DNA of 64,000 nt from Candidatus Limnocylindria bacterium (lineage in GTDB: Bacteria; Chloroflexota; Limnocylindria; QHBO01). The position numbers were made by a program, and so were the translations under genes. The stretch spans positions 2,202-66,201 of the forward strand of contig JBOGTC010000013.1 in the NCBI GenBank assembly GCA_050692055.1. The letters are read 5' to 3'. Numbering within the stretch: position 1 is the stretch's first letter; each line of letters opens with the position of its first letter. The notes below the pieces were generated by a model, which saw only the letters and a program-made list of their open reading frames with translations, did not search any database and was not told the origin of the DNA. Positions 7,544-32,507 of the stretch are shown here, in pieces.

Positions 7544-7581
7544 CGGTCCATGGTAGAGGTCGCCGCTCGCCCGACGCGGAG

Positions 7582-9000: not shown

Positions 9001-9069
9001 CCGCGGATGGGGCGGCCCAGAGGCCCACGAACCAACACCCGCGAACACGCTCGGTACAATCGCAGGGTC

Positions 9070-10488: not shown

Positions 10489-10507
10489 CTCGAGTGCCCC
10501 TGATTGG

Positions 10508-11014: not shown

Positions 11015-11265
11015 CGATCACGCCCCCCGAGCTGAATCCAAACACCATCACGGCTCCAGGCGGCGCCCGGCGTCGTGGAGCCGGAGTATTGCAGCCGCGG
11101 ATCACGCTGAATACCGGAGCGGTGACTGGCTGCACCGGATTAGTACCGTCGTACTGGCCGCCGTGGTTCGGACGGCCTATGATGCCGCGACGTGCCGTGA
11201 CCGAGCCCTGACGGCAAACTGCACTACGCCACCCATCCACGTTGCACGCTAAAGGGGGAGCTGGG

Positions 11266-13443
11266 GTGTCCTACTCTTGGATCTCAATGCCGCGCGCCCG
11301 CGCGCGCGCGATCGCAGCCGGCCTGATCACCGCCCTCGCGCTGCTGCCGATGCTGCTGATCACGCCCATCGCCGGGGTAGAGGTCGATGCAGGCTACAAG
11401 GACCATTCGTTCGGCCCGGCTGGCACGCCCACCGGCGACAAGCCACAGTCCCAGGTCTGGTTCGCCGACGGGTCCTGGTGGGGCGGCCTCTTCGTCTCGG
11501 GTTCAGACGACTATCGCATCCACAAGCTCGACACGGACATGCAGGCATGGAGCGCCACGGACGCGATCGTGGACGAGCGCAACGACACGCACGGCGACTA
11601 CCTGTGGGACGAGGCGAGCGACACGCTGTACGTCGCGTCGGTGCATGCCGACAGCAACGATGCTGCCATCAAGTTCTTCAGGTTCAGCTACAGCGCCGGC
11701 ACCTATACCTCCGCCTTCCCGGACGGCATCGACGCCGCATTCGGCCCATCCGAGACGGTCACGATCGCCAAGGACAGCCAGGGCCAGCTGTGGATCAACT
11801 ATACGAATCCGAACGGCCCGTACTGCGAGCAGGACGATTCGTGTGAGAGCGTGGAGCCACCGCCCTCAGGGCCGCCGCTGAACGAGGTCAACCGCAACGT
11901 TATGGTCGCCACCTCCGACGATGACGGTGCGACCTGGGACTCCTTTGTCCTCCCCAACTCGAGCGAGATCAGCTCCGATGACATCTCGGCCATCACCGCC
12001 TTCGGTGGCAATTCGGTCGGCATCATGTGGAGCAACGGCCTCGACAGCGAGACAAGCACGTCATTCAACTGGTCGAGCCACGCGGACGGTGCCGATGTCG
12101 ACGCCCCCGAGGCGTGGTCTGCCGAGGCAGAGGTGAGCTCTGGCGCGACAACCTATGCAGAGGATCACATCAACCTCAAGCTGACCGCCACGGCTTCGGG
12201 CACGGTCCTGGCCGCGGTCAAGACCAACGGACCAGACTCGGACGCCGATATCATGCTGCTCCGGCGCGACGGTCCGGCCACCTGGACCGAGCACGCCGTC
12301 GTGCATGGCGGCGGACCCACCCGACCACAGGTGGTGGTCGACCAGACGAACGCTGACGTCTACGTCCTCTACACCTTGCCGGAGAGCCCGCCCGACCAGG
12401 CCATCTACTACAAGAGCTCGCCGCTCAGCACGCTCGACTTCGACCCGGGCACGCCGGGGACGCCGTTCATCCAGAGCAACGATGACCCGGAGATCAACAA
12501 CGTCTCGACCGCCAAGCACACGGTGACGGCAGCGTCGGGGCTGCTGGCGACGGCCAGCGACGAGAGCACGGAGTTCTATTTCCACGGCTTCCTGGAGCTC
12601 GAGGGCACACCTGAACCCCCCCCGCCCGCCGCGCCGACCAACCTGAGCGCCACGGCCGGTGACGGCGAGGTGGCCCTGAGCTGGACGGCCTCCACGGGCG
12701 CCACGAGCTACAACGTCAAGCGTGGCACCACCGACGGCGGGCCCTACAGCACCATCGCGAGCCCGACCACGACGAGCCACACCGATACCACCGTCACCAA
12801 CGGCACCACCTACTACTACGTGGTCAGCGCCGAGAACGCCGATGGCGAGAGCAATGACTCGAGTCAGGTCAGCGCCACGCCGAGCGCCGAGCCCCCGCCG
12901 CCGCCTCCACCTCCGCCGCCGGACGAGGACCATCCGTTCACCGACATCGACGGCCACCAGTTCGAGGCGGACATCGTCTGGCTCTACAACGCCGGCATCA
13001 CGTCGGGCTGCAGCTCGACCCGCTTCTGCCCCGACAACGCCGTCAACCGCGAGCAGATGGCCAGCTTCCTGGTCCGCGCGCTGGACCTGCCGGCCTCGAG
13101 CACCAACTACTTCGGCGACGACGATGGCAGCATCCATCACGCCGATATCAACGCCCTGCGCGCGTCGGGCATCACCGGTGGCTGCGGCGGCACCAACTAC
13201 TGCCCCAAGCAGGTTGTCAACCGCGAGCAGATGGCCAGCTTCCTGACCAGGGCGCTGGACCTGGCTCCGTCGAGCGACAACGAGTTCACCGATGACGATG
13301 CGAGCATCCACCACGCCGATATCAACGCCCTGGCCGCCTCGGGCATCACCGGTGGCTGCGGCGGCAACAACTACTGTCCGCTGGGCGCGGTGACCCGCGG
13401 CCAGATGGCGGCCTTCCTGCATCGGGCATCGCCGAGGTTCTGA
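11266..13443 (+). CDS. Secreted cell-wall-anchored protein P1: BNR/sialidase-like N-terminal domain, FN3 domain, poly-Pro linker, 3 SLH-like repeats
   Basis: GTG at 11266 lies 5 nt after GGGGGAG (alternative ATG at 11287). Signal-like AIAAGLITALALLPMLLITPIAG. Family motif PTGDKPQSQVWFADGSWWG...YRIHKL. Canonical Asp-box SDDDGATW (11914-11937). FN3-like APTNLSATAGDGEVALSWT...YYYVVSAEN. Three repeats of the type F(T/G)DD...H..DI..L...GIT.GC....(F/Y)CP...V.R.QMA.FL.RAL. Confidence 0.8.
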   Translation: MSYSWISMPRARARAIAAGLITALALLPMLLITPIAGVEVDAGYKDHSFGPAGTPTGDKPQSQVWFADGSWWGGLFVSGSDDYRIHKLDTDMQAWSATDAIVDERNDTHGDYLWDEASDTLYVASVHADSNDAAIKFFRFSYSAGTYTSAFPDGIDAAFGPSETVTIAKDSQGQLWINYTNPNGPYCEQDDSCESVEPPPSGPPLNEVNRNVMVATSDDDGATWDSFVLPNSSEISSDDISAITAFGGNSVGIMWSNGLDSETSTSFNWSSHADGADVDAPEAWSAEAEVSSGATTYAEDHINLKLTATASGTVLAAVKTNGPDSDADIMLLRRDGPATWTEHAVVHGGGPTRPQVVVDQTNADVYVLYTLPESPPDQAIYYKSSPLSTLDFDPGTPGTPFIQSNDDPEINNVSTAKHTVTAASGLLATASDESTEFYFHGFLELEGTPEPPPPAAPTNLSATAGDGEVALSWTASTGATSYNVKRGTTDGGPYSTIASPTTTSHTDTTVTNGTTYYYVVSAENADGESNDSSQVSATPSAEPPPPPPPPPPDEDHPFTDIDGHQFEADIVWLYNAGITSGCSSTRFCPDNAVNREQMASFLVRALDLPASSTNYFGDDDGSIHHADINALRASGITGGCGGTNYCPKQVVNREQMASFLTRALDLAPSSDNEFTDDDASIHHADINALAASGITGGCGGNNYCPLGAVTRGQMAAFLHRASPRF
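12922..13440 (+). repeat. Three tandem SLH-like repeat units (coding) at the C-terminus of P1
   Basis: Three ~57-aa units, each with GIT(S/G)GC...(F/Y)CP and REQMASFL / RGQMAAFL. The first and last units are near-identical at DNA level to the corresponding units of P2. Confidence 0.7.
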
Positions 13444-13467
13444 GGGACGCCAGGCGACGTATCCACT

Positions 13468-13497
13468 GATCGGGGCGGCAGCAATGCCGCCCCGATC
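13468..13497 (+). terminator. Candidate intrinsic terminator hairpin after P1
   Basis: Perfect 13-bp stem gatcggggcggca / tgccgccccgatc with loop gcaa, 25 nt after the stop. No obvious T-tract. Confidence 0.45.
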
Positions 13498-13556
13498 ACT
13501 ATCCTGCGGTGGGACTCGAGCTGGAGGATCAATGTGCGCGGACGCTCCCGCGGCTG

Positions 13557-15497
13557 ATGTCAGGAACCTTTGGCGCTGCCTCGCGTCCAGCCATCTCGGC
13601 GGCACTCTCGATCGGGCTGCTTGCCGCGGCGCTCCTCGTTTCGGCCGTTCTCTCCCCGGCCCGCGCGGCGGTAGGCGATATCGGCCATGAGGGACCATCC
13701 TTCGCAGGCTCCGTCTCGGCGCCAACCGGCGAGAAGCCGGAGAGCAAGCTGTGGTGGAACGACGGTCAGTGGTGGGGATCGCTCTTCGCGCCAGGCGCTG
13801 GGGAGTACCGCATCCATCGGCTCAACGTCGCGACCCAGACGTGGGTCGACACAGGCGTGCCGCTGGATGACCGGCCGGGCTCGAAGGCCGACACGCTCTG
13901 GGACCCAGGCGTCCAGAAGCTGTACGTGGCCTCGCACATCTTCTCGAGCGGGGCGAACGACGCCGGTTTCCCGGCGCGGCTGTATCGGTACAGCTACAAC
14001 GCGTCAACCGATGCCTACTCGCTCGACGCTGCCTTCCCCACGCAGATCAACAATGTCAAGAGCGAGACGCTCGTCATCGACAAGGACTCGAGCGGCCAGC
14101 TATGGACCACGTGGGAGCAGGGTGGAAAGGTCCATCTGAACCGCACACTGTGCACGGCCTGCACCCTTGCCGACGACGACAACTGGGGCACGCCGTTCCT
14201 TCACCCTGCCCCCGGGGCACAGAACGCGACCAGCGACGACATCTCGTCCATCGTGGCCTTCGACGGCGACAAGGTCGGCGTCATGTGGAGCAACCAGAAC
14301 GACGACCGCATGTATTTCTCGGTCCACCTGGACGCGAGCGACGACTCCACGTGGGAGACGGCGAGCGTGGCGTTCGGCGGGAACAACAACGCGGACGACC
14401 ATATCAACCTGAAGGCGCTCCAGACTGATCCGAACAGTGGTCGGGTCTTTGCGGCCATCAAGACCTCCCGCTCGGGAGGCAGCGATCCGCTCGTCGTCCT
14501 CGTGGTGTATGACCGGGATGCCCTGCGCTGGTCAACGGCCACGTTCGGGACGGTCGCGAACGACCATACCCGGCCGATCCTGATGCTGGATAGCAGCAAT
14601 CGACTGGTGCACATGTTCGCGATGGCCGGCGGCACGATCTACTGCAAGACCGCGGACATGGATGCGGCAACCCCCACGTTCCCGACCGGCCTGGGGCAGG
14701 CCGTCATGCACGACGCGAGCCGCGCGAGCATCAACGACCCCACCTCGTCGAAGCAGACGGTCAGCAGAACGACCGGCATGACCATCCTCGCCGGCAACGG
14801 TCGGACGGGGCGCTACTGGCATCACTACAACGCCCTGACGACGCCAGGCTGCAACCCCTCCAGCGGCGGCAGCTCCCCGACACCTTCACCATCCCCCACC
14901 CCGACGCCGACGCCGAGCCCCAGCCCGAGCCCGAGTCCGAGCCCGAGCCCGCCACCACCGCCTCCGCCACCGCCGGACGAGGACCATCCGTTCACCGATA
15001 TCGACGGCCACCAGTTCGAGGCGGACATCGTGTGGCTCTACAACGCCGGCATCACCTCGGGCTGCAGCTCGACCCGCTTCTGCCCCGACGACGCCGTCAA
15101 CCGCGAGCAGATGGCCAGCTTCCTGGTGCGCGCGCTGGACCTGGCGGCCACCAGCACCGACTTCTTCAGCGATGACAACAGCTCGATCCACGAGGACGAC
15201 ATCAACCGCGTGGCGGCAGCCGGCATCACCGGTGGCTGCGGCGGCACGAGCTACTGCCCTGAGCAGGTTGTCAATCGCGAGCAGATGGCCAGCTTCCTGG
15301 TGCGCGCCCTGGACCTGGCGGCCACCAGCACCGACTTCTTCACTGATGACAACAGCTCGATCCACGAGGACGACATCAACGCCCTGGCCGCCTCGGGCAT
15401 CACCGGTGGCTGCGGCGGCAACAACTACTGTCCGCTGGGCGCGGTGACCCGCGGCCAGATGGCGGCCCTCCTGCATCGGGCCTCCGCACGCTCCTGA
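13557..15497 (+). CDS. Secreted cell-wall-anchored protein P2: BNR/sialidase-like N-terminal domain, Ser/Thr/Pro linker, 3 SLH-like repeats
   Basis: ATG at 13557 gives MSGTFGAASRPAISAALSIGLLAAALLVSAVLSPARA. Family motif PTGEKPESKLWWNDGQWWG...EYRIHRL...LYVAS...DDISSIVAFDGDKVGVMWSNQ. Linker PSPSPTPTPTPSPSPSPSPSPSPPPPPPPPP followed by three SLH-like repeats. Confidence 0.8.
   Translation: MSGTFGAASRPAISAALSIGLLAAALLVSAVLSPARAAVGDIGHEGPSFAGSVSAPTGEKPESKLWWNDGQWWGSLFAPGAGEYRIHRLNVATQTWVDTGVPLDDRPGSKADTLWDPGVQKLYVASHIFSSGANDAGFPARLYRYSYNASTDAYSLDAAFPTQINNVKSETLVIDKDSSGQLWTTWEQGGKVHLNRTLCTACTLADDDNWGTPFLHPAPGAQNATSDDISSIVAFDGDKVGVMWSNQNDDRMYFSVHLDASDDSTWETASVAFGGNNNADDHINLKALQTDPNSGRVFAAIKTSRSGGSDPLVVLVVYDRDALRWSTATFGTVANDHTRPILMLDSSNRLVHMFAMAGGTIYCKTADMDAATPTFPTGLGQAVMHDASRASINDPTSSKQTVSRTTGMTILAGNGRTGRYWHHYNALTTPGCNPSSGGSSPTPSPSPTPTPTPSPSPSPSPSPSPPPPPPPPPDEDHPFTDIDGHQFEADIVWLYNAGITSGCSSTRFCPDDAVNREQMASFLVRALDLAATSTDFFSDDNSSIHEDDINRVAAAGITGGCGGTSYCPEQVVNREQMASFLVRALDLAATSTDFFTDDNSSIHEDDINALAASGITGGCGGNNYCPLGAVTRGQMAALLHRASARS
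14976..15494 (+). repeat. Three tandem SLH-like repeat units (coding) at the C-terminus of P2
   Basis: Same architecture as 12922-13440. 15375-15467 is a 93-nt perfect match to 13321-13413. About 165 nt from 14976 differ from 12922 onward at only about 6 positions. Confidence 0.7.
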
Positions 15498-15859
15498 GGA
15501 TGCCCGGCGACTCCACCGCGGGCTCGAGCGAGCGCGAGTTTGCAGAGGAGCCACGCGTGGTCACCCGGCCCTGATGTACCCTGCGCCGAATGTACGGGGA
15601 GGGTCATGACGACCGCTGACTCCCCAGTTGTTGACGACCCGCACCACTTACAGCGCTTAGGTGTGGTTAAGGCGGGATCAGAGGATTGTAAAGACCCCTT
15701 CACCCCCATTAGACTTGCCAGTACCTTCGACCCATGGTCTCAGCCATCGTGCCCAACATGGCTGGTACCCGTGGTCAATGCATTCAGCCGTACGGCACCA
15801 GCCACATAGGCGGCCGGTCCGCCCAACCGATGCGGGGGAACTCCCATGGATCTCACTCG

Positions 15860-17320
15860 ATGAACATCACCGTCATTGGCCAAGGTTACGTTGGCCTGGT
15901 GACCGCGGCCTGCTTTGCCGAGTGGGACCACCACGTTACCGGGATCGACGCCAATCCGCAGCGGATCTCCGCGCTCAAGGCTGGGCGCATCCCCTTCCAC
16001 GAGCCGGGCCTTGACGAGCTCGTCAAGAGCAACGTCGCAGCGGGACGCCTGCGCTTCACCGAGAGCTCGGCGGGCGTGCTGCGCGACAGCGACGTGGTGT
16101 TCGTTGCCGTCGGCACGCATGACGGCAACGGCGGGTGGCAGACGGCCACCATCCTCACCTGCCTGGGCGAGATTGTGCCCGAGCTTCCCGACAGGGCCGT
16201 CCTGGTGATCCGCTCGACGCTGCCGCCGGAGTTCGTGCGCCAGCTGGGCAACGTGGTCGACACGCTGCGCGAGCAGGCGGGCAAGCATTCCATTGCGGTG
16301 CTGCTGAATCCCGAGTTCACGCGCGAGGGAGCGGCCATCCTGGACTTCACCCAGCCGGAGCGAATCGTCTTCGGCGTATCGAGCGATCAAGATGAACGCG
16401 GTGTGGCCGCGATGCGCCAGCTCTACGCGCCGGCCAATGCACCCATGCTGGTGATGCCGGCCATCGACGCGGCGTTCTCGAAGCTGGGCGCCAACCTCTT
16501 CCTGGCCACCAAGATCAGCTTCGTCAATGAGCTCGCCTCGCTGTGCGACAGCTTCGGCGCGACCATCGATAACGTGGTCGGAGCCATGTCGTACGACGAG
16601 CGCATCGGTGGCCGCTTCCTGCATGCCGGCGTCGGCTTCGGCGGCTCGTGCCTGCCGCACCAGGTGAGCATGACGGTACGCACCGCGGGTATCGCCGGCG
16701 TGCCGGCTCCGCTGCTCACCGCCGTCGACGACATCAACCACCGCCGACGCACGGAGATGGTGGATCGCCTGATCGAGCTCCTCGATCGGCCCGTGGATGG
16801 CGCGCTCGTCGCGATCCTGGGACTGACCTTCAAGCCGCACACCGACGATCTGCGTGACGCTCCATCGCTGGCAATTGCGAAGCAGCTCCTCGAGCGAGGA
16901 GCAACCGTGGTCGCCTACGATCCGATGGAGACGGCGCGGACGCTGGCTGCAACGTTCGTGGATGGCCTGGTCACCGTTGCGTCGCCCGAGGAGGCGCTGC
17001 GAGGCGCCGACGCGGCCGCGGTGGTGACCGAGTGGCCGGACATTCGGCACCTCGACTGGGCGCACGTGCGCGGCCTGATGCGTGGTCACGTTGTCTTCGA
17101 CGGCCGGAATGCCCTCGATCCCTCCGCGGTGACAGCTGCAGGGTACCGATATGCAGCCTTCGGACGCGGGGAGCACGAGGCACCTGCCTTCGCGATGTCC
17201 CAGGAGCACCTCGGTCGGGGCATTGGCGCCGTAACGGTCGACGCCAGCCAGCTCGAGCCGGTCGCCGTGCCTGCCAGAACGCAGGCCAGCGACCGGGAGC
17301 GGGCAGGGAGAGGCGCATGA
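15860..17320 (+). CDS. ugd: UDP-glucose 6-dehydrogenase
   Basis: ATG at 15860. Has MNITVIGQGYVGLVTAACFA (Rossmann GxGxxG), NPEFTREGAA, catalytic Cys context GFGGSCLPHQ, and LGLTFKPHTDDLRDAP. Confidence 0.9.
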   Translation: MNITVIGQGYVGLVTAACFAEWDHHVTGIDANPQRISALKAGRIPFHEPGLDELVKSNVAAGRLRFTESSAGVLRDSDVVFVAVGTHDGNGGWQTATILTCLGEIVPELPDRAVLVIRSTLPPEFVRQLGNVVDTLREQAGKHSIAVLLNPEFTREGAAILDFTQPERIVFGVSSDQDERGVAAMRQLYAPANAPMLVMPAIDAAFSKLGANLFLATKISFVNELASLCDSFGATIDNVVGAMSYDERIGGRFLHAGVGFGGSCLPHQVSMTVRTAGIAGVPAPLLTAVDDINHRRRTEMVDRLIELLDRPVDGALVAILGLTFKPHTDDLRDAPSLAIAKQLLERGATVVAYDPMETARTLAATFVDGLVTVASPEEALRGADAAAVVTEWPDIRHLDWAHVRGLMRGHVVFDGRNALDPSAVTAAGYRYAAFGRGEHEAPAFAMSQEHLGRGIGAVTVDASQLEPVAVPARTQASDRERAGRGA

Positions 17321-17853: not shown

Positions 17854-17859
17854 CGGGCC

Positions 17860-18471
17860 ATGCGCGACGAACGGTGGCTCTATCTGGGACTCAAGCGCGT
17901 GATTGACCTGCTCGTCGCGGTCACGCTGCTGCCAGTGATCATCCTGGTCCTGGCAGCCTGCGCGCTCGCGGTACGCCTGGACTCCCCCGGACCGATCCTC
18001 TTCACGCAGCTGCGCACCGGCCGCCACGGCAGCCGCTTCCGCATGTACAAGTTCCGCACCATGGTTCAGAACGCGGAAGAGCTCAAGGCGAGCCTTGCCC
18101 ACCTCAGCATCGTGCCGCCGCCTGACTTCAAGGTCATCGACGACCCACGCATCACGCCGGTCGGCCGCTTCCTGCGCAAGACCAGCCTCGATGAGCTGCC
18201 GCAGATCATCAATGTGCTGCGTGCCGAGATGAGCCTGGTCGGTCCTCGACCGACATCGTTCGAGCCATCCACCTACGAGCTGTGGCATACCCAGCGCCTC
18301 GAAGTGCCGCCGGGCATCACGGGCCTGTGGCAGGTGAAGGGCCGGAACGAGTCGACCTTCGACGAGCGGTTGCGCCTCGACATCGAGTATCTCAACCGGA
18401 TGTCGGTGGGGCTCGACATGCGCATCCTCTTCCTCACCGTGGCCTCGGTCGTTCGCCGCTCCGGGGCCTGA
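17860..18471 (+). CDS. Priming phosphoglycosyl transferase (small bacterial sugar transferase, WbaP/PglC type)
   Basis: Has [10 protein letters not shown]...[27 protein letters not shown]...[38 protein letters not shown]...PGITGLWQV. Confidence 0.9.
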
Positions 18472-19128
18472 CTACCGATCCGCTTCGCCGGCAGCGACCT
18501 TCGTTCTTCTCGGCACAAGCCGACTCCCGGCAAGCGCGGTGGTGAACAGGCTGGCGAGGGCGCCCAGCCGAATCACCACGATCGGCGGCAGCTCGATCGC
18601 ATGCTCCTCGTTCCATGGCATCGCTGATCCGGCCAAGACGTCAAGGAGGAGATGGACCGCTAGGAACCCGATGCCGTCGATGAGCGCGGCGGCCGCGATC
18701 CAGGGTGCCGCCTGACGAACGGCAACGAGCAGGAGCGCGAGCTGAGGCACGGCGATCACCGCGAGCATCGCGGAACCTATAGGCCACTGATCCAGCGCGA
18801 TTCCGGCCAGGACGAGATGGAAGAACGCGCTCGCCACCAGCGAAGCGACCAGAGCCTGTGACGGCCAGCGAACGGTGCCTACCGAGGCGGCAACGACCAG
18901 GCCCGCGGACGAGATCCAGCCAATTGCCACGACCCCGACGGTCTCGACCGGTATCGGAATGAGGTCGACCGAGCGGACCAGGACGATGAACGCCGCCACG
19001 AGGCCGATCGCCAGCCCCGCCAGCAGCTGCACGCGCAGTCGCGGCTCGCCATCGCTACGGAGGGCCACCAGGATGAGCGCGGTGGCGACGCCCGCGACGA
19101 GCAGCCACAGCACGATGACCTGGATCAC
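18472..19128 (-). CDS. Hypothetical polytopic membrane protein
   Basis: About 6 hydrophobic segments. Lies 41 nt downstream of the epimerase gene on the same strand. Its stop codon directly abuts the stop of the convergent PGT gene. Confidence 0.5.
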   Translation of the reverse strand: MIQVIVLWLLVAGVATALILVALRSDGEPRLRVQLLAGLAIGLVAAFIVLVRSVDLIPIPVETVGVVAIGWISSAGLVVAASVGTVRWPSQALVASLVASAFFHLVLAGIALDQWPIGSAMLAVIAVPQLALLLVAVRQAAPWIAAAALIDGIGFLAVHLLLDVLAGSAMPWNEEHAIELPPIVVIRLGALASLFTTALAGSRLVPRRTKVAAGEADR

Positions 19129-19169
19129 CTAGCCGCTCTCAGCTCCTGGCTCGGCCGGCTCGGGGGCGG

Positions 19170-20117
19170 TCAGCGACCATCGCGGCCGGACCGCGGCTGA
19201 GCCTGCCACTCCACCTGGCTGCGGAGACCTTCGCCCGGCAGCACCAGCGGCCGATAGCCGAAGGCGGACTCCGCCTTGCTCGTATCGGCCCATGTCCGGC
19301 GCTGATCGCCGGGGCGCGGTGGCGCATGCGAGACGACCGGCTCCTCGCCGCACGCCGCGGCGATGAGCTCGAGCGCGTCGCAGAGGGTGATCTCCTGGCC
19401 GCCGCCGATGTTGTAGATCCCCCCCACCTCGGCGCCTTCGAGCGCGTCGATCGTGCCGCGGACGCAGTCCGACACGTAGGTGTTGGACCGTGACTGCCGT
19501 CCATCCCCAAAGATCACGATGGGCTGCTGATCGAGCAGCGCCTCGATGAAGATGTGGAACGCCATGTCCGGGCGCTGCCGCGGGCCGTAGATCGAGAAGT
19601 AGCGCAGGACTGCCGCGGGGAATCCAAAGGCCTGGACGTGCGCCAGGACCAGGTGCTCGGCCGCCAGCTTGCTGATGCCATACGGCGACACGGGGACGAG
19701 CGGCTGTGCTTCATCGCCCACGGCGTTCTCGCCGTATACCGACGAGGTGGACGCCTGGATGAAGCGGCGGACGCCCGCGCGGCGCGCGGCGTCGATCAGG
19801 CGCTGCAGGCCGAGGACGTTGCAGCCAACATACCCGTCCAGATCCGTCCAGCTGCGCATCAGCCCGGCCATGGCCGCCTCGTTGATGACGGCCTCGACGC
19901 CGTCGAGGGCCTCGTCCAGCGGATCGGAGCGCAGATCGACCTCCGCGAACTCGAAGCGTGGATCTCCGCGCAGCTCGGCCAGGTTCTGCTCCTTGATCGA
20001 CCGCGGATAGTAGTCGACGAAGGAATCGATACCGCGGACGTCGTGTCCCTCGGCCAGCAGACCCTGGCACAGGTGCGAGCCCACGAAGCCCGCCGCGCCG
20101 GTGACCAGGATTCGCAT
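19170..20117 (-). CDS. NAD-dependent nucleotide-sugar epimerase/dehydratase (UDP-glucuronate / UDP-hexose 4-epimerase-like SDR)
   Basis: Has MRILVTGAAGFVGSHL, STSSVYG, and YGISKLAAE (YxxxK). Its start overlaps the stop of P3 by 1 nt. Confidence 0.85.
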   Translation of the reverse strand: MRILVTGAAGFVGSHLCQGLLAEGHDVRGIDSFVDYYPRSIKEQNLAELRGDPRFEFAEVDLRSDPLDEALDGVEAVINEAAMAGLMRSWTDLDGYVGCNVLGLQRLIDAARRAGVRRFIQASTSSVYGENAVGDEAQPLVPVSPYGISKLAAEHLVLAHVQAFGFPAAVLRYFSIYGPRQRPDMAFHIFIEALLDQQPIVIFGDGRQSRSNTYVSDCVRGTIDALEGAEVGGIYNIGGGQEITLCDALELIAAACGEEPVVSHAPPRPGDQRRTWADTSKAESAFGYRPLVLPGEGLRSQVEWQAQPRSGRDGR

Positions 20118-22129
20118 CAGCCGGACTGCCGCTGAATGCGGACATTGTCGAACAGCATCTGCACGCTGGCCCCCTCAGGCGTGCGGAGGCAGACGCGATC
20201 CACCTCGTGCGGCCCAGGATCGCGCCACTGCGCGCCGGCGACGCTGAAGATCAGGTCGCCGGTGTCCAGCCGGACGACGTCCCAGGCGTAGGTGCCGGTC
20301 GCAAAGTCGACGGTGGCCGTTGAGCGATACCAGACTCCGGCCTGGTACAGCGTCCCGCTGTTCACCTCGCGCGAGCCATCCATGTACATGAGCGTCCCGC
20401 GGTCGCTGAGCTCGACGTTCGCGGTCTCCGCCCTCACGTCGCGGACCGAGGTGATCGTGGCCTCATCGGTCCCAAGGCCGGTCATGAGCACGTCGACCTG
20501 CACGACCAACGTGCCGGCCGAGACCGGCGGAATCCTCCGGCAGGCCTCGACGCGCTGGCCGGCCGCGCCGGAGATCGCGTAGCCGACCATGCCCGATCCG
20601 TCGGCGGCGACCGTCACGCCGGCCGTGCCCTGCGCCTCCAGGGCGTTGTGCGACCACCCGTCCGGAAGGCCCGCGGCGACGGACCACGGATCGAACGTCT
20701 CGTGGACCAGGTCGGTCGACACTCCATCAGCCGCGTCGAACTTCGCCCCGTCGCCGCGCGACGTGCCCGGTGGTACGCCGTCGAGCGACAGAGCCGCGTG
20801 GAGGTACCGCCCGGTGCTGCCATCCGCGGCCAGCACGACGAGCCCGGTGTCGCTGTTGACGTTCTGCTTGGTCGCCGTGGCGTTGTTGATGAGCGGGTCG
20901 ATGGCACTGTCGATGAGGGGCGTTCCATGGCCCGCGGGGAAGCTGATCCGATCCAGCGAGGTCACCTTGTAGTTGATGGTGCCGCCGCCGCCGGGCTGGG
21001 TGGCGAAGATGTAGAGATCGCGGTGCTCCTCGTCGATGACCACCACGGGCCGCGTGTGCTGATCACCGACGCGTCCGTACAGATACTTGCGCCATGTCCC
21101 ATCCGGCTCCAGCACCAGGAGCATGATCTGCGGGTCATCGTGCCTCTTCACCTCGAGCGCTTCCAGCGAGGTCTTGACGGCCACGAACAGGCGACCGCTC
21201 TCGTCACCCTCGAGGGCCCTGACGCTCAGGTGGTCGTCCGCGTTCTTGAGGCCCTGGACGACGGTGCTGGTCGCGTTCCAGGCGTCGTCGGGGGCATCGT
21301 CGGGATGGGTCGCGAAGTAGACGGCATCCTCGTTCTGGTTGGTCCACACGACCCCGACCCGGCTGGCGTAGCTGATGATGGCGGACTCGTCCGCGGCGAC
21401 CATGGTGCCGTCGACCGGGGGAATGAACGGCTCCCCCCAGTGATAGTGGTCGTGCAGCGACCGATTGACGAAGACCCGGTTCTGGGCGATGTAGCTGACC
21501 CACAGCTGCTCGGTCGTGTCCTTCGCGATCGTCACCGCCACGACGCCCCCATCGCTGATGGTCACCGGAAAATCGGGATCGAGGCTGTAGCGGCCGCTCT
21601 CGGGGTCGTAGCTGAAGCGAAGGATGCGCGCGGCATGCGATGTCCGCTCTTCCTTGGGGCCTGCACTGGCCACGTAGAGGTGAGAGCCGTCCCAGAGGGC
21701 GTCGGCGTGCACCTCGGGCCGTTCGTCGATGACGACGCCGGTGTCGTGCCACTCCTGCGTCGCCCAGTCGAGACGGTGGATCCGGTACTCGCGGCCGGTG
21801 ACGTCGAGCATCGCGGCCCACCAGGCCCCATCGTTGAACCACAGCTTGCTCTGCGGCTTGTCCATGGTCGGCTCATCGACTTCGGTGGTGTCGTACCGCG
21901 GCCCGCGGTACGTCGTCGGCGTGGCTGCCGCGGGTCCCACCTCGTCCAGCGAGCGCTGACTCGCTTCCGCCTGGCCGGGAGGGCTGATCGCCGGTGACGG
22001 AGCGTCAGCGCCCGCGATGCGGCCATCGCCCAGCGTGCGGACGACCATGAAGGAGGCGACCGCGATGGCGAGGACGATGGCTACTCGGGTGAAGACTTTC
22101 AAGGCACTTACGGCAGGATGTCGGGACAC
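20117..22129 (-). CDS. Secreted/anchored protein P3: BNR/sialidase-like N-terminal domain plus a C-terminal LamG-like jelly roll
   Basis: N-terminal TM/signal VAIVLAIAVASFMVV. Family motif TMDKPQSKLWFNDGAWWA...EYRIHRL...LYVAS...DESAIISYASRVGVVWTNQNED. The C-terminal ~190 aa ends MLFDNVRIQRQSG. Confidence 0.8.
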   Translation of the reverse strand: MSRHPAVSALKVFTRVAIVLAIAVASFMVVRTLGDGRIAGADAPSPAISPPGQAEASQRSLDEVGPAAATPTTYRGPRYDTTEVDEPTMDKPQSKLWFNDGAWWAAMLDVTGREYRIHRLDWATQEWHDTGVVIDERPEVHADALWDGSHLYVASAGPKEERTSHAARILRFSYDPESGRYSLDPDFPVTISDGGVVAVTIAKDTTEQLWVSYIAQNRVFVNRSLHDHYHWGEPFIPPVDGTMVAADESAIISYASRVGVVWTNQNEDAVYFATHPDDAPDDAWNATSTVVQGLKNADDHLSVRALEGDESGRLFVAVKTSLEALEVKRHDDPQIMLLVLEPDGTWRKYLYGRVGDQHTRPVVVIDEEHRDLYIFATQPGGGGTINYKVTSLDRISFPAGHGTPLIDSAIDPLINNATATKQNVNSDTGLVVLAADGSTGRYLHAALSLDGVPPGTSRGDGAKFDAADGVSTDLVHETFDPWSVAAGLPDGWSHNALEAQGTAGVTVAADGSGMVGYAISGAAGQRVEACRRIPPVSAGTLVVQVDVLMTGLGTDEATITSVRDVRAETANVELSDRGTLMYMDGSREVNSGTLYQAGVWYRSTATVDFATGTYAWDVVRLDTGDLIFSVAGAQWRDPGPHEVDRVCLRTPEGASVQMLFDNVRIQRQSG

Positions 22130-22207
22130 AGGAACCCCCCACCGTGGAGCCTCTTGATCCCTCCAGCCCGCAGTATAGGTGCAGAACGCATCTTGGGTGC
22201 AGGCGGA

Positions 22208-23185
22208 CTATCGAGTTGCCTCACCCCAGATTGAAAGGTCCAGCCCCGTGAGCTGTGCGAGCCTTCGGTTGTCCGGGGCAAACTCGCTGTCCAGGCGGGC
22301 CAGGACGGCGCGTTCCTCGTCGGACCGGTCGCCGGAGCCGACTCGGAAGTTGAGAGCCGCGTACGGCGCTTTGAGCGCCCTGTGCGCGCGCTTCTTGAAC
22401 CGGCCAGCGGGGATCATGCGACCAAGGGACAGCCTGAGCCGGTGGAGGCGCGAAGAACGCGTGCGAACCGTGGGCTTCTTCCGCAGGAATGGATACGAAT
22501 CGTAGTAGCTGGGCTCGAGACCGAGATGCGTGGCAAGGTCACGCATGAACCGTCGCTCGTCCCTGATCATGTGCTCGAAGAGGAGCAGCTGGATCCGGCC
22601 AGGTGGGAAATGCTCCAGCCAACGCTCGAGGTAGTCCACGTAGCGGCTCTGCGTGATCGCCCATCTCGTCAGATCAGTGAGCCGGCCCTGGTCCTCGCGA
22701 GCCGCAAGCTCAACGAACTGCGCGAACGTGATCGAGCGGTCGAGCGTTGCCAGGTTGTTGCGAGCGTACTCGTAGAACGAGTAGACCCGTTCGGACGGCT
22801 TGCGCAGCAGGAAGATCACCCGCGGCTTGGACTCGAGCTGCGCGAGCATCTCGCGCGCGGTCTCCTGGTAGATGTAGCCCGGAGTGCCCTCGAGAATCAC
22901 CCTGCTGGAACTGACATCGCAGTGCTCGAAGTAGGACGCATAGGCGCCGAGGCCATGATCCGCATAGTTGCTCCGCGCGTTGAAGGTCGGCCACTCCCGA
23001 TCCATGAAGAAGTACGTCTCCTTGACGCTCGACGCGCAGACGTCAGGGTGGTCGGCGAGCCAGGCGAACACGGACGTCGTCCCGCACTTTGGCGCTCCGG
23101 CGATCACGACGTTCGGCAGCAGTAGCCGAGCTGCCTTCCGGGCGATCAGTGCATCAGCGCGGATCACAGGCATGCGCGCATCCAC
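22208..23185 (-). CDS. Sulfotransferase (PAPS-dependent family) 1
   Basis: 5'-PSB motif VVIAGAPKCGTTSVFAWL. LLRKPSERVYSFYEY is a 3'-PB-like region. Alternative start at 23173. Confidence 0.8.
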   Translation of the reverse strand: MDARMPVIRADALIARKAARLLLPNVVIAGAPKCGTTSVFAWLADHPDVCASSVKETYFFMDREWPTFNARSNYADHGLGAYASYFEHCDVSSSRVILEGTPGYIYQETAREMLAQLESKPRVIFLLRKPSERVYSFYEYARNNLATLDRSITFAQFVELAAREDQGRLTDLTRWAITQSRYVDYLERWLEHFPPGRIQLLLFEHMIRDERRFMRDLATHLGLEPSYYDSYPFLRKKPTVRTRSSRLHRLRLSLGRMIPAGRFKKRAHRALKAPYAALNFRVGSGDRSDEERAVLARLDSEFAPDNRRLAQLTGLDLSIWGEATR

Positions 23186-23297
23186 ACGACGATCTCCATC
23201 CGCCCGATGAGCGAGAAATGCTTCAAGGGATCCTCGGAGTCAATAACATGACTCGGCCACCAATCTCACGCTGGTCATTGTGGGAGTCCCACAGGGT

Positions 23298-24149: not shown

Positions 24150-24166
24150 CTCTCGGTGCTGGAATC

Positions 24167-25282
24167 TCAATGGTGCGACGCGAGCAAGTCCGCATAGACC
24201 CGTTCGGTCGCCTCGATGAAGGCTGCCATCGAATAACGCTCCGCGACCAGTCGGCGGCCGCGCTCACCCATGGCGGCTGTGACGCGCGGCTGCCCCAAGA
24301 GGTGCTTGATTGCATCCGCCAGGCGCTCGCTGTCGGCGGGCGGGACGAGCAGGCCGTGCTCGCCCGTCGTCACGATCTCCGGAATCCCGCCAACGCTGCT
24401 GGCCACCACCGGGCGACCATGCACGAGTGACTCGAGCAGGACGATGCCGAACTCCTCCTGCAATGACGGCAAGACGGTGAATTGGCAGAGCGCGATGAGA
24501 TCGGAGACGTCATTCCTCGCTCCCAGGAACTTGACGTGCCCTGACAGTCCGAGCTGCCGGGTTCGCTCCTCAAGCTCGGCCCGATCCTCGCCATCCCCGA
24601 TGAGCAGGAGGCAGACGTCAGGGTGGGTGCTCGTGACCGAAGCCAGGGCCTCGAGGAGATACCGCTGGCCCTTTCTCTTCCGCAGGCGGGCGACACACCC
24701 GATGAGCGGCGTCTCGGAGCCGATCCCGAGCTCGTCGAGCAACGCCCTGCGCTGTACCGCGGTGAGCTCAACAGGCATCTCCATCCCCATGGGGATCACT
24801 CGTATCCGCCCCGGATCGACGCCGTACCTCTCAATGGCATGTCGCTCGACGGCCTGGCTGAGCACGATGAGGCGCTCGCCCATGCCTGCCGCAGTGAGTC
24901 GACGCTGATCGTTGCGGATCTCATGGATCGTGGATACCAGGCGCGTCCCGGTCAGCCGCGCCACCAGCCTGCCGATGAGTGCCGCGTAGCGGTGGTGCGA
25001 GTTGATGAGCTGGATGCGCTCCCGACGCACCAGCCGGGCCAGCCGAATGGATGTCGGCACCAGATCCACGACGTTCGGAGTGGAGCGCGACGGCCCGAGG
25101 TAGGGTGAGAGGCGGAAGTCGGTACGCTGCTCCGCGACATCGTGGATCCTTGCATCCCACGCACCGCCGCCGCTGACCACCATCACGCGATGACCGCGCT
25201 CCACCAGCCCCTGGCTCAGGCGGACGATGTACTCAGTCGCTCCACCCACCGGCAGGGATGGGCGAATCTGCAGGATGTTCAT
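24167..25282 (-). CDS. Glycosyltransferase family 4 (GT-B)
   Basis: Has MNILQIRPSLPVGGATEY... and the C-terminal EEFGIVLLESLVHGRPVVASSVGGIPEIV (E-x7-E region). Confidence 0.85.
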   Translation of the reverse strand: MNILQIRPSLPVGGATEYIVRLSQGLVERGHRVMVVSGGGAWDARIHDVAEQRTDFRLSPYLGPSRSTPNVVDLVPTSIRLARLVRRERIQLINSHHRYAALIGRLVARLTGTRLVSTIHEIRNDQRRLTAAGMGERLIVLSQAVERHAIERYGVDPGRIRVIPMGMEMPVELTAVQRRALLDELGIGSETPLIGCVARLRKRKGQRYLLEALASVTSTHPDVCLLLIGDGEDRAELEERTRQLGLSGHVKFLGARNDVSDLIALCQFTVLPSLQEEFGIVLLESLVHGRPVVASSVGGIPEIVTTGEHGLLVPPADSERLADAIKHLLGQPRVTAAMGERGRRLVAERYSMAAFIEATERVYADLLASHH

Positions 25283-25360
25283 TGCGTCCTTCGCAGGATC
25301 GTCCCGGCGGCGCTGGCAGGTACGGTCGCCGTCACTGGCGACCGCGGACAGCTTGCCGGG

Positions 25361-26299
25361 TTATGCCCAGGCGGACAGGTCCAGACCCGTCTGCTCCGCG
25401 AGCCGCCGATTGAGCGGTGCGAACTCCGCGTCCAGCTCCTTCAGCACCCGGACATCATCGTCTGACCTGGCTTGCTGCCCGCGTCGTACGTTCATCGCAG
25501 TGTATGGCCGGGTCAGTGCCTTGCGAAGGGCACGCTTCAGTGAGCTCCTCGGCAAGAGCCGCCCCATCCTCAGTCTGGTTCGCTGCAGCATCTGGAGGCG
25601 GACGTTGTAGGTCTGCTTCTTTCGGGGGAAGTGGTAATCCGCGTAGTACCCCTGGTCGATGCCAAGCGCCGCAGCCACGCTGCGCATGAAAGCCGACTGA
25701 TCTGCCTGCAGAGCCTCGAAGAGGAAGAGATGCAGGTTCTGCGGCGGAAACCTGGACAGCCAGTCGCCCAGGTAGTCACTGTACCGACTGAACTGGATCC
25801 CGTACTCGGACCACGCCTCGCGTTCCACTCGCTCCACCCCGCCTGGAACCGACTGAAATGAACCTGCGCCGGTCCGAAGCATCGACACGAAGTCTCGGAA
25901 TGTCGTGGCCGGGCTGATGATCGCCATGTTGTTGCGGGCGTACTGGTAGAAGGAATACGTGCGTTCCGAGGGCTTGCGAAGCACGAAGACGACCTGGGGT
26001 GCCGGGTCCAGGCTGGAGAGGACCTCCAGGGCGGTTCTACGGTACAGGTACTCGGGCGTGGCTTCGAGGATGACCTGGGCCCGGGCAGGATCGCAATGCG
26101 CGAAGAATGATTCGTAGCCGGCGAGTCCGTGATCCGCGTAGTTACACGCAGGATTGAATAGCGGTGTTCCGCGATCGACCAGGTAGTGGGTCTCCTTCAC
26201 GCTGGCGCCGCATACCTGCGGATGGTCGTTCAGCCACGCAAACAGCGAGGTCGTGCCCGACTTCGGTGCTCCAGCGATCACGACGTTTGGCAGAGTCAT
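25361..26299 (-). CDS. Sulfotransferase (PAPS-dependent family) 3, close paralog of 22208-23185
   Basis: Has MTLPNVVIAGAPKSGTTSLFAWLNDHPQVCGASVKETHY and VLRKPSERTYSFYQYARNN. Confidence 0.85.
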   Translation of the reverse strand: MTLPNVVIAGAPKSGTTSLFAWLNDHPQVCGASVKETHYLVDRGTPLFNPACNYADHGLAGYESFFAHCDPARAQVILEATPEYLYRRTALEVLSSLDPAPQVVFVLRKPSERTYSFYQYARNNMAIISPATTFRDFVSMLRTGAGSFQSVPGGVERVEREAWSEYGIQFSRYSDYLGDWLSRFPPQNLHLFLFEALQADQSAFMRSVAAALGIDQGYYADYHFPRKKQTYNVRLQMLQRTRLRMGRLLPRSSLKRALRKALTRPYTAMNVRRGQQARSDDDVRVLKELDAEFAPLNRRLAEQTGLDLSAWA

Positions 26300-26315
26300 A
26301 CGGACTGGCTGATTC

Positions 26316-28394
26316 TCACGTTCCGCCCTGGGTCACCACCAGCTGCGGCGGCTGGCTGCCCTCGCTGCTGCTGTACCACGTTGCGGGCTTGGCGGTCCCG
26401 ACCAGGACGAAGCTGTAGGTGCCGTCGGCGCCGATGCTGCTGGTCACGTCGAGCTCGACCCAGATCCCGCCGGTCGTGGCGCCGGCGCTGTCGAGCACGG
26501 CCCCGCTGCTGCCCGGGCGCGTGTTCCAGGTGATGGTGGCCTCATCCCAGTCGTTGCTGGCCGCGGCATAGAGGTCACCGCCGCCGGGGCTGGCCTGGAC
26601 CACGAACAGGCGCAGCGTGGCGCTGCTGACCGTGTCGGTCAGTCCGGCGACGCTGAACTTGAGGTAGGAGTCGGAGTTGTTGTCCGGATTGCCATCGCTG
26701 AAGGCGCGCAGGATGGTGTCGTTGCCGTAGTTGGCGTTGGGCGCGGGGCCGCGCACGGTGGCGTCGTCGGTGGGGGTGAAGATCAGCGGCTCGCCGCCAC
26801 CACTGCCGTCGGTGACGGTGATGGTGACGGTGGCGATGTTGCTGTCGTCGGTCCCGTCGTTGGCGGTGTAGGTGAAGGCGTAGTCGCCGCTGAAGCCCGG
26901 CTCGGGGGTGTAGCTGAAGGAGCCATCGGCGTTGAGCGTCACGTCGTCGCCCGGATCGCTGACCTCGGTCGCGGTCAGCGGGTCGCCGTCGGCGTCGGTG
27001 TCGTTGGCCAGCACGCCGGGAGCGGCCACGTTGAGGGTCGTGTCCTGCGGGGTGCTGTAGCTGTCGTCGGCCGCCACCGGCGCGCTGTTGGGCGGCGGCT
27101 CGCCACCTGGATCCTCCACGCCGTTGCAGCCGGCAGTCGTCAGCGCGTTGTGGTGGTGCCAGTAGCGCTCTGCACTGCCGGCCGCCATGACCACCAGCCC
27201 CGTCGTGCTGTTGACGTTCTGCTTGGCGGAGGTGGCGTTGTTCATGGTGTGGGACGCATCGCGCAGGACCGGCTCACCCAGCCCGGCGGGGAAGCTCATG
27301 CCGTTGCGCGCGGCGTCCATGTTGGTGGTCTTGCAGTAGATGGTCTGCCCCACGCTGTTCGACGTCGGCGAGGTGGCGAACAGGTGGACCAGCCGGTTCG
27401 TCGTGTCGAGCATGACGATGGGCCGGGTGTGATCGTCCTGCTCGGTCCCGAACACCGCGGCATCCCACCAGCCCTCGCTGCGGTCGTAGCGCAGCAGGAC
27501 GACGAGCGGGTCCGGGTTGTTGGAGCGGCTGGTCTTGATGGCGGCGAAGACGCGGTCGCTGTTGGGATCGGCCTGCAGCGACTTGAGGTTGATGTGGTCA
27601 TCGGCGTCACCGCCGGCGCTGCCGTAGGCGACGCTGGCCACCTCCCAGGTCGTGTCGGCGCCGGCATCGAGATGCACGGAGAAGTACATCCGGCTGTCGG
27701 GCTGGTGGCTCCACATGACGCCGATCTTGTTGCCGTCGAAGGCGACGACCGAGGCGATGTCGTCGCTGTTGAGGCCGGTCGCGCCGGTGACCGGCAGCGT
27801 GAACTCGGCGCCCCAGGTCGCATCGTCGGTGGTCGAGCGATTGACCTTGACCTCGCCGCCGGCCTCCCAGGCCGCCCACAGCTGTCCGGTCGAGTCACGG
27901 TCGATGGTCAGCGTCTCGGGGTTGGTACCGGTGATCTGGGCCAGGTGGTTCGCCGTCCCGGCGCCGGCGTCGTTGGTGTAGGTGTCGGTGTCGGCGTTGT
28001 AGCTGAAGCGGAACAGGCGGCCGCCGCCGCTGCCACGGGAGGCCACGTACAGCTTGCCCGTGGCCTGGTGCCAGAGCGTGTCGGCCCGCGAGCCCGCTCG
28101 GGTGTCGATCGGCACGCCGGTGTCGGTCCACTGCTGGGTCGTCGCATTGAGACGATGGATGCGGTGCGCTGCGCCGGCAGGGCTGTACATGACCGCCCAC
28201 CAGTGCCCGTCGTTCCACCACAGCTTGCTCTCCGGCTTCTCGCCGGTCGCGGCGCCGCCAACGCCGGTATTGGAAGGACCCTCCCAGCCGAAGTCGCCGG
28301 TGTCCGCCGCGACGGCGGCGGGCAGCATGTTGAGCGCGACGACCAGCGCCAGGACAAAGACCGGCCGGCACCGCCGGAACAGCGAAGGGCACAT
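26316..28394 (-). CDS. Secreted protein P4: BNR/sialidase-like N-terminal domain, cadherin-like/Ig-like domain, DNRLRE (CBM96-like) C-terminal domain
   Basis: ATG at 28394 gives the signal-like MCPSLFRRCRPVFVLALVVALNMLPAAVAA. Family motif ATGEKPESKLWWNDGHWWA...HRIHRL...LYVAS...DDIASVVAFDGNKIGVMWSHQ. Cadherin-like APVAADDSYST...VLANDTDADGDPL...FTYTANDG. DNRLRE-like YGNDTILRAF...SYLKFSVAGL...ATLRLFVV...WDEATITWNTRP. Confidence 0.8.
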   Translation of the reverse strand: MCPSLFRRCRPVFVLALVVALNMLPAAVAADTGDFGWEGPSNTGVGGAATGEKPESKLWWNDGHWWAVMYSPAGAAHRIHRLNATTQQWTDTGVPIDTRAGSRADTLWHQATGKLYVASRGSGGGRLFRFSYNADTDTYTNDAGAGTANHLAQITGTNPETLTIDRDSTGQLWAAWEAGGEVKVNRSTTDDATWGAEFTLPVTGATGLNSDDIASVVAFDGNKIGVMWSHQPDSRMYFSVHLDAGADTTWEVASVAYGSAGGDADDHINLKSLQADPNSDRVFAAIKTSRSNNPDPLVVLLRYDRSEGWWDAAVFGTEQDDHTRPIVMLDTTNRLVHLFATSPTSNSVGQTIYCKTTNMDAARNGMSFPAGLGEPVLRDASHTMNNATSAKQNVNSTTGLVVMAAGSAERYWHHHNALTTAGCNGVEDPGGEPPPNSAPVAADDSYSTPQDTTLNVAAPGVLANDTDADGDPLTATEVSDPGDDVTLNADGSFSYTPEPGFSGDYAFTYTANDGTDDSNIATVTITVTDGSGGGEPLIFTPTDDATVRGPAPNANYGNDTILRAFSDGNPDNNSDSYLKFSVAGLTDTVSSATLRLFVVQASPGGGDLYAAASNDWDEATITWNTRPGSSGAVLDSAGATTGGIWVELDVTSSIGADGTYSFVLVGTAKPATWYSSSEGSQPPQLVVTQGGT

Positions 28395-30157: not shown

Positions 30158-30159
30158 TC

Positions 30160-32488: not shown

Positions 32489-32507
32489 AGGCTGTCGAGT
32501 CGCGACG

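Follow-up and report, generated by a model that had tools for sequence, protein, structure and literature searches.

A large unannotated β-propeller family associated with polysaccharide loci, with four paralogs in a Candidatus Limnocylindria genome

The DNA considered here, called the window throughout, is a stretch of 64,000 nucleotides from a Candidatus Limnocylindria bacterium of the Chloroflexota (assembly GCA_050692055.1, contig JBOGTC010000013.1, positions 2,202 to 66,201). It encodes four paralogous proteins, P1 to P4, which are embedded in a Wzx/Wzy-type polysaccharide island occupying roughly kb 11 to 52 of the window and which carry a common N-terminal domain (N-domain) followed by different C-terminal modules. 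The N-domain defines a large, unannotated and uncharacterised protein family of known fold, and this family is strongly associated with polysaccharide loci. Three of its subtypes, namely wall-anchored through S-layer homology (SLH) or CWB2 repeats, ConA-tailed and CBM96-tailed, are old and syntenic. As to function, the N-domain is tentatively proposed to be an extracytoplasmic glycan-processing enzyme that would act on the polymer made by the island itself, a possibility weighed below against a binding role and others.

Four paralogs sharing one propeller domain

P1 (11287..13443, + strand; alternative starts at 11242, 11266 and 11287) represents the wall-anchored subtype and comprises a signal peptide, the propeller domain (11389..12606, with a P1-specific insert), an fn3 domain and three SLH repeats. 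P2 (13557..15497, + strand; alternative start at 13509) has a signal peptide, the propeller (13674..14846), a Pro/Ser/Thr linker and again three SLH repeats. The other two genes are on the - strand. P3 (20117..22129) carries a signal/anchor segment, a long linker, the propeller (20774..21922) and a ConA/LamG-like β-sandwich, and P4 (26316..28394, in an open reading frame, ORF, that reaches 28715) consists of a signal peptide, the propeller (27132..28298), a cadherin-like/Big_9 spacer and a CBM96 (DNRLRE) module. The four ORFs with a common N-domain had first been described in a reading of the DNA made without database searches (the sequence-only reading), and they are borne out. Indeed, about 390 residues are alignable among P1-P4, with 74 invariant columns, and identity to the P2 domain amounts to 34% for P1, 41% for P3 and 61% for P4, a similarity far beyond chance. 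A hydrophobic signal or anchor segment, likewise claimed for all four, is present at the start of each.

The conserved motif blocks proposed for the N-domain are all found, although not without a few substitutions in single paralogs: P3 has PTM for PTG and ADES for DDIS, P4 has AHRIH, and P1 has AEDH and an MW block ending in SNG. The canonical Asp-box predicted in P1 (SDDDGATW) lies exactly at 11914-11937, within the propeller, and is the only match to S/T-x-D-x-G-x-x-aromatic across P1-P4. YRIH was also considered as the FRIP motif of sialidases and rejected, its Arg (R46) being invariant in P1-P4 but falling short of 90% conservation in the family. In public records, the protein identical to P1 (NCBI MGH2427383) is named 'S-layer homology domain-containing protein' and P3 is named 'hypothetical protein', whereas the counterpart of P4, a cluster member of the same length (692 residues; MGH2427395) encoded on the contig that also bears P1 and P3, goes under 'DUF7594 domain-containing protein'. 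The G+C content of the window is 65-72%.

No Pfam or NCBIfam model is matched above threshold by the N-domain, whether single sequences or profiles (of 4 and of 33 sequences) are used. Against the sequences of the whole PDB, profiles recovered one spurious SH3 match or none at E<=10. The sequence-only reading could not place the N-domain in a named CAZy family, and none of these three resources ties it to a characterised enzyme family. BNR_2 is matched by P1 only, at 25.7 bits and therefore below the gathering threshold (GA) of 31.4, with no match in P2, P3 or P4; in the family, it matches two of 33 members at E<=1.

The fold was addressed by modelling the P2 propeller domain with AlphaFold2 (AF2) on a 33-sequence alignment. 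The model is all-β with 28 strands, at a predicted local distance difference test score (pLDDT) of 93.6 and a predicted template modelling score (pTM) of 0.92. The best Foldseek matches in the PDB belong to GH145/PL42 (4irt, BT3686 and BACCELL_00856, with 5muk, 5mul and 5mvh also listed), at template modelling (TM) scores of 0.60-0.64 and E~1e-9. They are followed by the Pseudomonas pseudaminidase, the PL24 ulvan lyase LOR107 (6byt, TM ~0.5), the polysaccharide lyase Uly1, GH74 enzymes and sialidases, the sialidase and pseudaminidase matches standing at TM 0.38-0.50. Identity in the structural alignments is 10-13%. In a viral structure library, the only matches were phage propellers of uncharacterised function (TM up to 0.67), which are uninformative. 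In this model, the fold class is clearly that of a β-propeller of the sialidase/PL42-like structural class. Since there are 28 strands and the best structural matches (GH145/PL42, PL24) are seven-bladed, the domain is most simply seen as seven blades of four strands each, with the N-terminal strand closing the propeller, rather than the six-bladed propeller previously expected. The label of a BNR/sialidase-like domain, in turn, holds for the fold class but not for the sequence, given the sub-threshold BNR_2 score, its presence in so few members and an Asp-box confined to P1.

The C-terminal modules assigned in the sequence-only reading could all be recovered. In P1, the fn3 domain (12631..12873, residues 449-529) scores 26.3 bits in Pfam against a GA of 25, and the SLH stretch (12934..13440; E=1e-17) holds three repeats by eye. 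In P2, Pfam finds SLH in three stretches (14988..15494). Overall, SLH (PF00395) reaches 64-65 bits in these two proteins for a cut-off of 20.8, in two to three stretches, and three tandem repeats can be read in the translations. The tail of P4 begins with an Ig-like spacer identified by Pfam as cadherin-like/Big_9 (26811..27095, residues 434-528) and ends with the CBM96/DNRLRE module (26328..26780), which is supported by Pfam (CBM96, PF24517, 118.4 bits; GA 26) and by NCBIfam (DNRLRE, NF033679, 88.3 bits; cut-off 34). The tail of P3 (20120..20773) has no Pfam match, Laminin_G included. Its AF2 model is a β-sandwich of 15 strands (pLDDT 74), for which Foldseek retrieves from the PDB calreticulin lectin domains, legume lectins and the accessory domain of BT_1020 (TM 0.55-0.64, E~1e-8). 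The predicted jelly roll of P3 is therefore ConA-like/LamG-like at the fold level only, as judged from this model.

Family, genomic context and old subtypes

A full-database profile search with the N-domain recovers 3,044 clusters (50% identity) at E<=1e-3 and 1,611 at E<=1e-30. Of 149 occurrences, 130 have the domain at the N-terminus; two metagenomic proteins (P0121 and P0122) carry two complete propellers in one chain. Conservation was counted over 150 representative domains, with the numbering of the P2 domain. Sixty-nine positions are at least 90% conserved, including ten Trp, and the conserved charged or polar residues are K21, D65, R67, D73, Y84, R105, Y108, D189, H218, D220, D242, H243, K263, R300, D306, K325, N354, Y381 and H383, a set whose core is intact in all of P1-P4. 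The propeller domains are acidic, with a median isoelectric point (pI) of 5.1. In the 80 best species-representative genomes with the family, the taxa include several classes of Chloroflexota and, within Actinomycetota, Thermoleophilia, Acidimicrobiia, Micromonosporaceae, Georgenia and others, as well as Gemmatimonadota, Calditrichia, Eisenbacteria, Terriglobales and one deltaproteobacterial metagenome-assembled genome.

Partner domains were counted in an unbiased sample of 53 representatives. The most frequent one is CBM96 (22), followed by Big_5 (10), PKD (9), cadherin-like (7) and TIG (5) domains, whereas ConA-like, SLH, RTX and T9SS (2 each) and phytase and PA14 (1 each) are rarer. The usual layout consists of a signal peptide, the propeller, Ig-like spacers and then a carbohydrate-binding module (CBM). 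Some members of ~400-450 residues have no annotated tail domain and are apparently stand-alone propellers.

These counts bear on readings in which P1-P4 are themselves part of the cell surface. The sequence-only reading had offered S-layer-like structural proteins as its alternative, which is unlikely for a family with SLH in only two of the 53 sampled members. A related explanation would make P1-P4 surface or S-layer-type glycoproteins that accept the island glycan. The Wzy_C protein (41531..43129, - strand; polymerase, ligase or O-oligosaccharyltransferase family) would then be an O-oligosaccharyltransferase, and the Pro/Ser/Thr linkers would be glycosylation sites. Proteins of the Wzy_C family do include O-oligosaccharyltransferases, the four genes lie inside the island, and P1 and P2 bear SLH triplets, with a long PSPT linker in P2. 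However, besides the scarcity of SLH in the sample, S-layer lattice proteins evolve fast, whereas the N-domain keeps its 69 near-invariant positions across phyla. Moreover, the island also has components typical of polymer export, namely a Wzx-type flippase (28598..30157, + strand; Pfam, ~14 hydrophobic segments) and a Wzz/PCP-like chain-length determinant (47478..48956, - strand). A role as glycan acceptors is accordingly regarded as very unlikely.

The genomic context of the family was surveyed with window proteins as tblastn probes on 80 loci, taken with up to 10 kb on each side. Homologues of Wzx are found in 18 of them, of the priming transferase in 16, and of Wzy and of the UDP-glucose/GDP-mannose dehydrogenase (UGDH) in 11 each. 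Among the loci of at least 15 kb, 21 of 48 hold at least one of these four genes and 19 of 48 contain two or more propeller genes; by a rough estimate, chance would account for about one locus in 80 if a genome of 5 Mb held some three copies. The link to glycan genes suggested from the window alone thus extends to the related loci, and a family occurring widely apart from such genes is not what was found. Co-located paralogs with different tails are also a recurring feature of the family, as illustrated by an Ardenticatenaceae locus (L041, 4663-16357) with four tandem propellers whose tails are a phytase (392 bits), an InlB-B-repeat, CBM96 plus dockerin, and CBM96.

Recurrent neighbours were obtained by unsupervised clustering of the neighbouring ORFs in the 80 loci. 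The top one, present in 22-23 loci, is an unannotated cytoplasmic protein homologous to that encoded at 37231-38529 (+ strand) of the window. Homologues of this protein occur in Micromonospora, Dactylosporangium and Chloroflexia; it has no Pfam match, and a weak P-loop signal of the thymidylate-kinase type is seen at the C-terminus of longer homologues. Large APH-kinase proteins stand beside propellers in 18 loci, some of them exceeding 1,300 residues (L004, L024 and others). Polysaccharide deacetylase (11-17 loci), ATP-grasp (12-13), Wzx (12) and GT2 (11) come next, and glycosyltransferases and epimerases are recurrent too. The loci of Micromonospora and Dactylosporangium have no Wzx match and contain instead GT2, FemAB-like acetyltransferase and APH genes.

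Such neighbourhoods are also informative about a further explanation, in which P1-P4 would be enzymes scavenging foreign environmental polysaccharides and would lie in the island by coincidence or co-regulation only. It is in line with the catabolic nature of the structural neighbours (GH145/PL42, ulvan lyases, GH74) and with CBM96, which was defined in an alginate lyase (PMC9971899). Nevertheless, the genes that recur beside the propellers belong to biosynthesis (glycosyltransferases, Wzx, Wzy, UGDH, epimerase, deacetylase, kinases) and include no transporter, no sugar-catabolism genes and none like those of polysaccharide utilisation loci. As propeller genes, in addition, remain syntenic with those for the priming transferase and UGDH across classes, scavenging is hardly plausible.

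This synteny is seen for the P3 subtype. Homologues of the P3 tail, found by jackhmmer on the collected related sequences, occur in at least nine other loci. The P3-type gene is directly followed by an epimerase gene in four (L004, L008, L049, L062), and the ORF calls overlap in L007. P3-type genes lie a few kb from the priming transferase and/or UGDH and from a second propeller gene, and several Chloroflexota display a conserved block made of a P3-type gene, the epimerase, the priming transferase, UGDH and a second propeller gene. In the window, Pfam identifies UGDH (15734..17320, + strand) in this block between two propeller genes, together with a Bac_transf priming sugar transferase (17860..18471, + strand) and an NAD-dependent epimerase (19170..20117, - strand). 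The stop codon of P3 overlaps the start codon of this downstream epimerase (TGATG), which indicates that the two genes are translationally coupled and would be co-translated. An iterated search with the P3 tail also recruited the C-terminal 70 residues of an ORF without Pfam match (5084-6787, - strand; E=9e-18 after iteration), which may be profile drift.

The wall-anchored subtype is similarly stable. The closest homologues of P1 (45-50% identity) almost all have SLH, and a few have the wall-binding repeat CWB2 instead. In two other Chloroflexota genomes, as in the window, the P1-type gene lies just downstream of a KAS-KAS-...-NUDIX-CysS series at the edge of the island; the whole order covers 405-13443 in the window, 1-11812 in L081 and 1-11848 in L082, and it marks a stable island edge. 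One of these two other islands also holds CBM96-type and P3-type genes.

P2 departs from this picture. Its propeller is of the CBM96/PKD-tailed subtype, with P4 as nearest relative, and none of the 120 best matches to the P2 propeller has SLH. Its SLH module, however, shares 86.5% DNA identity with that of P1 over 550 nucleotides (12880-13427 versus 14937-15481), whereas the propeller regions of the two genes give no alignment at the DNA level and 34% identity at the protein level. This points to a recent transfer of the module, or to gene conversion, between the adjacent genes. P2 would thus be a duplicate of a CBM96-type gene that then took the SLH module of its neighbour. The modular shuffling inferred in the sequence-only reading therefore applies to the tail of P2, which appears to be a recent acquisition, but not to the P1-, P3- and CBM96-type architectures, which are old, conserved and syntenic.

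Candidate function of the propeller

The island encodes UGDH, two sulfotransferases (22208..23185 and 25361..26299, both on the - strand; Pfam) and the further genes described below, and its polymer is therefore probably anionic, with uronic acid and sulfate. This Wzx/Wzy-island polymer would be the substrate of the N-domain, which may be a lyase or a hydrolase, a Ca-dependent esterase being less likely. P1 and P2 would be placed on the cell wall through their SLH repeats, P3 near the membrane through its N-terminal anchor and its ConA-like lectin domain, with co-translation of the nucleotide-sugar epimerase, and P4 in the matrix through CBM96. Trimming, release or remodelling of the polymer would hence take place at three sites. 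Catalysis, substrate and localisation of P1-P4 are deduced here, and the following observations argue for an enzyme. The structural neighbours are mostly enzymes acting on acidic sugars, and a dense invariant set of Asp, His, Arg and Tyr is kept across phyla despite differing sets of glycosyltransferases. The layout with a signal, the propeller, spacers and a CBM is the usual one of CAZymes, and apparently stand-alone propellers exist. Finally, Pfam annotation reveals no other recognisable glycoside hydrolase or lyase in the window island, from which the alginate-lyase-like gene of related loci, looked for in the window, is absent as well.

The closest structural parallels are PL42, PL24 and PL25, which have in common an anterior Arg/His/His/Tyr site on a seven-bladed propeller (PMC8377490). 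Like the N-domain, PL42 (formerly GH145, with BT3686, BACCELL_00856, BACOVA_03493/4irt and FoRham1), PL24 and PL25 are single-domain propellers of ~375-400 residues with seven blades, the blade number of the N-domain being that deduced above. Their substrates are uronic-acid glycans, sulfated in the case of ulvan, and genes for UGDH and sulfotransferases lie in the window island; FoRham1, like P1, has an Asp-box motif. Unlike these families, the N-domain has no detectable sequence similarity to them, with ~12% identity in the structural alignments, its genomic context is biosynthetic and not catabolic, and its partners are CBM96, SLH and ConA-like domains. With GH33 sialidases and the Pseudomonas pseudaminidase, the N-domain has the propeller fold in common, P1 adding one Asp-box and the sub-threshold BNR_2 match. 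These enzymes, however, have six blades as against the seven deduced here, and the N-domain is devoid of repeated Asp-boxes (one in P1, none in P2-P4). From the order of residues in the sequence, the Arg triad of sialidases and their Tyr/Glu/Asp set are not recognisable in the N-domain, although it does conserve several Asp together with R67, R105, R300 and Y381.

Glycanases encoded in or next to exopolysaccharide (EPS) clusters, such as AlgL, PslG and BcsZ in Gram-negative bacteria, offer a parallel to the proposed polymer processing. Precedents from Actinoplanes also favour an enzyme: one sulfated Wzx/Wzy cluster depends on its GH26 enzyme, WpsE (PMC13390465), and GimA and GimB, paralogous secreted GH5 proteins with a binding domain, are encoded beside an EPS cluster and degrade its product (PMC12691653). 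Glycanases of the WpsE and GimA/GimB type combine a secreted enzyme with binding domains, are sometimes paralogous and are encoded with Wzx/Wzy, which resembles the layout of P1-P4. The wps-1 cluster includes two sulfotransferases and the kinase-like WpsI, just as the window island has sulfotransferases and kinase-like APH proteins; such APH-type proteins are encoded in the window at 39635-41527, 51123-52337 and 7582-8874. In contrast to the N-domain, WpsE, GimA/GimB, AlgL, PslG and BcsZ have (β/α)8 or α/α toroid folds, none of them a propeller, and they do not form a conserved set of three subtypes.

Several results weigh against an enzymatic N-domain. The searches in Pfam, NCBIfam and with PDB profiles provide no sequence link to any enzyme family, and a TM of ~0.6 is to be expected of any seven-bladed propeller, the lectin CV39L scoring 0.58. 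In a topology-based test, the conserved polar residues are only mildly biased toward the top face (23 versus 13, p=0.29). One homologue is fused to a phytase, which fits a targeting module as well as a catalytic one, and the low pI of the domain sits poorly with a polyanionic substrate, unless Ca2+ acts as a bridge. Furthermore, 11 of the 80 related loci contain a separate gene with an Alginate_lyase domain (PF05426), so that the propeller is not obviously 'the' glycanase there; examples of this gene are located at 15307-16887 in L008, 1442-3778 in L031 and 14650-15531 in L082.

Some of these results would suit a propeller that binds without cutting. In such a matrix scaffold, or 'double-sided tape', the propeller would hold the exopolysaccharide of the island and the C-terminal modules would fasten it elsewhere, SLH to the cell wall, thereby retaining the capsule in a monoderm, and ConA-like and CBM96 modules to other glycans or surfaces. 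The model is provided by Bap1 and RbmC of Vibrio cholerae, which share an exopolysaccharide-binding propeller and differ in their environment-facing domains (PMC10102183). They are likewise paralogs tied to one exopolysaccharide, and the match in logic is close. The conserved wall anchoring of the P1 subtype through SLH or CWB2 suits tethering, ten invariant Trp suit sugar stacking, and adhesin-type partners (cadherin-like, PKD, RTX, TIG) are common. The phytase fusion can be read as cargo targeting, no catalytic family is matched in the sequence searches, and a lectin propeller falls within the same TM range.

On the other hand, the core residues are very conserved across phyla although the glycosyltransferase sets differ, whereas variation would be expected in a lectin adapted to a single polymer. 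Propellers that apparently stand alone also exist, and an acidic domain would have to bind a polymer that is itself predicted to be anionic. The propeller of Bap1 and RbmC, gammaproteobacterial proteins in which it is known to bind and not to cut, has eight blades and an inserted β-prism; the N-domain has seven blades by the count adopted here and no β-prism, and no Bap1 structure is found in its top 50 PDB matches. By analogy with Bap1 and RbmC, a purely binding role is a serious though less likely alternative, and glycan processing remains the preferred, if tentative, assignment.

A more ambitious form of the enzymatic assignment is unlikely, although it can be formulated. The propeller would then represent a new enzyme family at the CAZy level and carry out a core extracytoplasmic step of a Wzx/Wzy pathway particular to soil monoderms (Chloroflexota, Actinomycetota). 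This step could be the release of the finished chain from its lipid carrier, for instance, or its transfer or trimming at the wall. The subtypes would divide this work by place, with the ConA-tailed one proximal to the membrane, the SLH/CWB2 one at the wall and the CBM96 one in the matrix.

Other genes of the island and significance of the family

The interleaving of the paralogs with glycan genes, already proposed from the sequence, is confirmed by Pfam. Besides the genes mentioned above, a GT4 glycosyltransferase is encoded at 24167..25282 (- strand). The island has three NAD-dependent epimerases/dehydratases in all, several glycosyltransferases of the GT4/GT1 families and one GT2, together with a polysaccharide deacetylase, an ATP-grasp protein, a phosphoenolpyruvate (PEP) mutase, a 2-hydroxyacid dehydrogenase and APH-type kinases. 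Between the priming transferase and the epimerase lies a gene for a small polytopic membrane protein (18472..19128, - strand). A tblastn search with this protein gave no match in any of the 80 related loci; an ORF of similar size (216 residues) by the priming transferase of L004 has no detected sequence similarity to it.

Three genes on the - strand form a cluster at 31304-34348, encoding the ATP-grasp protein (31304-32569), the PEP mutase (32508-33407, 187.7 bits) and the D-2-hydroxyacid dehydrogenase (33404-34348). This trio could provide a phosphonate or amino-acid decoration of the glycan; homologues of the PEP mutase are present in only two of the 80 related loci. The mechanically called ORF at 29581-31353 overlaps the Wzx gene by ~580 nucleotides, and its glycosyltransferase domain begins at residue 407, its true start being probably near 30200. 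Just outside the island, a permease of the CitMHS/Na-sulfate-symporter type with TrkA_C (56162-58369, - strand) could supply sulfate to an island with two sulfotransferases.

What is known in this system is the fold and the modular logic, and what is new is a large unannotated family with a previously unremarked, conserved place in the polysaccharide islands of monoderm soil phyla. Thousands of its proteins, in abundant and mostly uncultured soil phyla, are presently annotated by their tail only, as 'PKD', 'DNRLRE', 'S-layer homology' or 'hypothetical'. Should binding be the sole role of the domain, the 'double-sided tape' principle of Bap1 and RbmC would reach into distant phyla. If the core-step version were true, it would fill a poorly understood stage, that is, the release or attachment of Wzy-dependent polymers in bacteria without an outer membrane. 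The domain nominates a candidate new family of lyases or hydrolases for acidic polymers and can serve as a marker for finding such islands in metagenomes. It thereby gives a handle on the processing or retention of sulfated and uronic exopolysaccharides in monoderm Chloroflexota and Actinomycetota.

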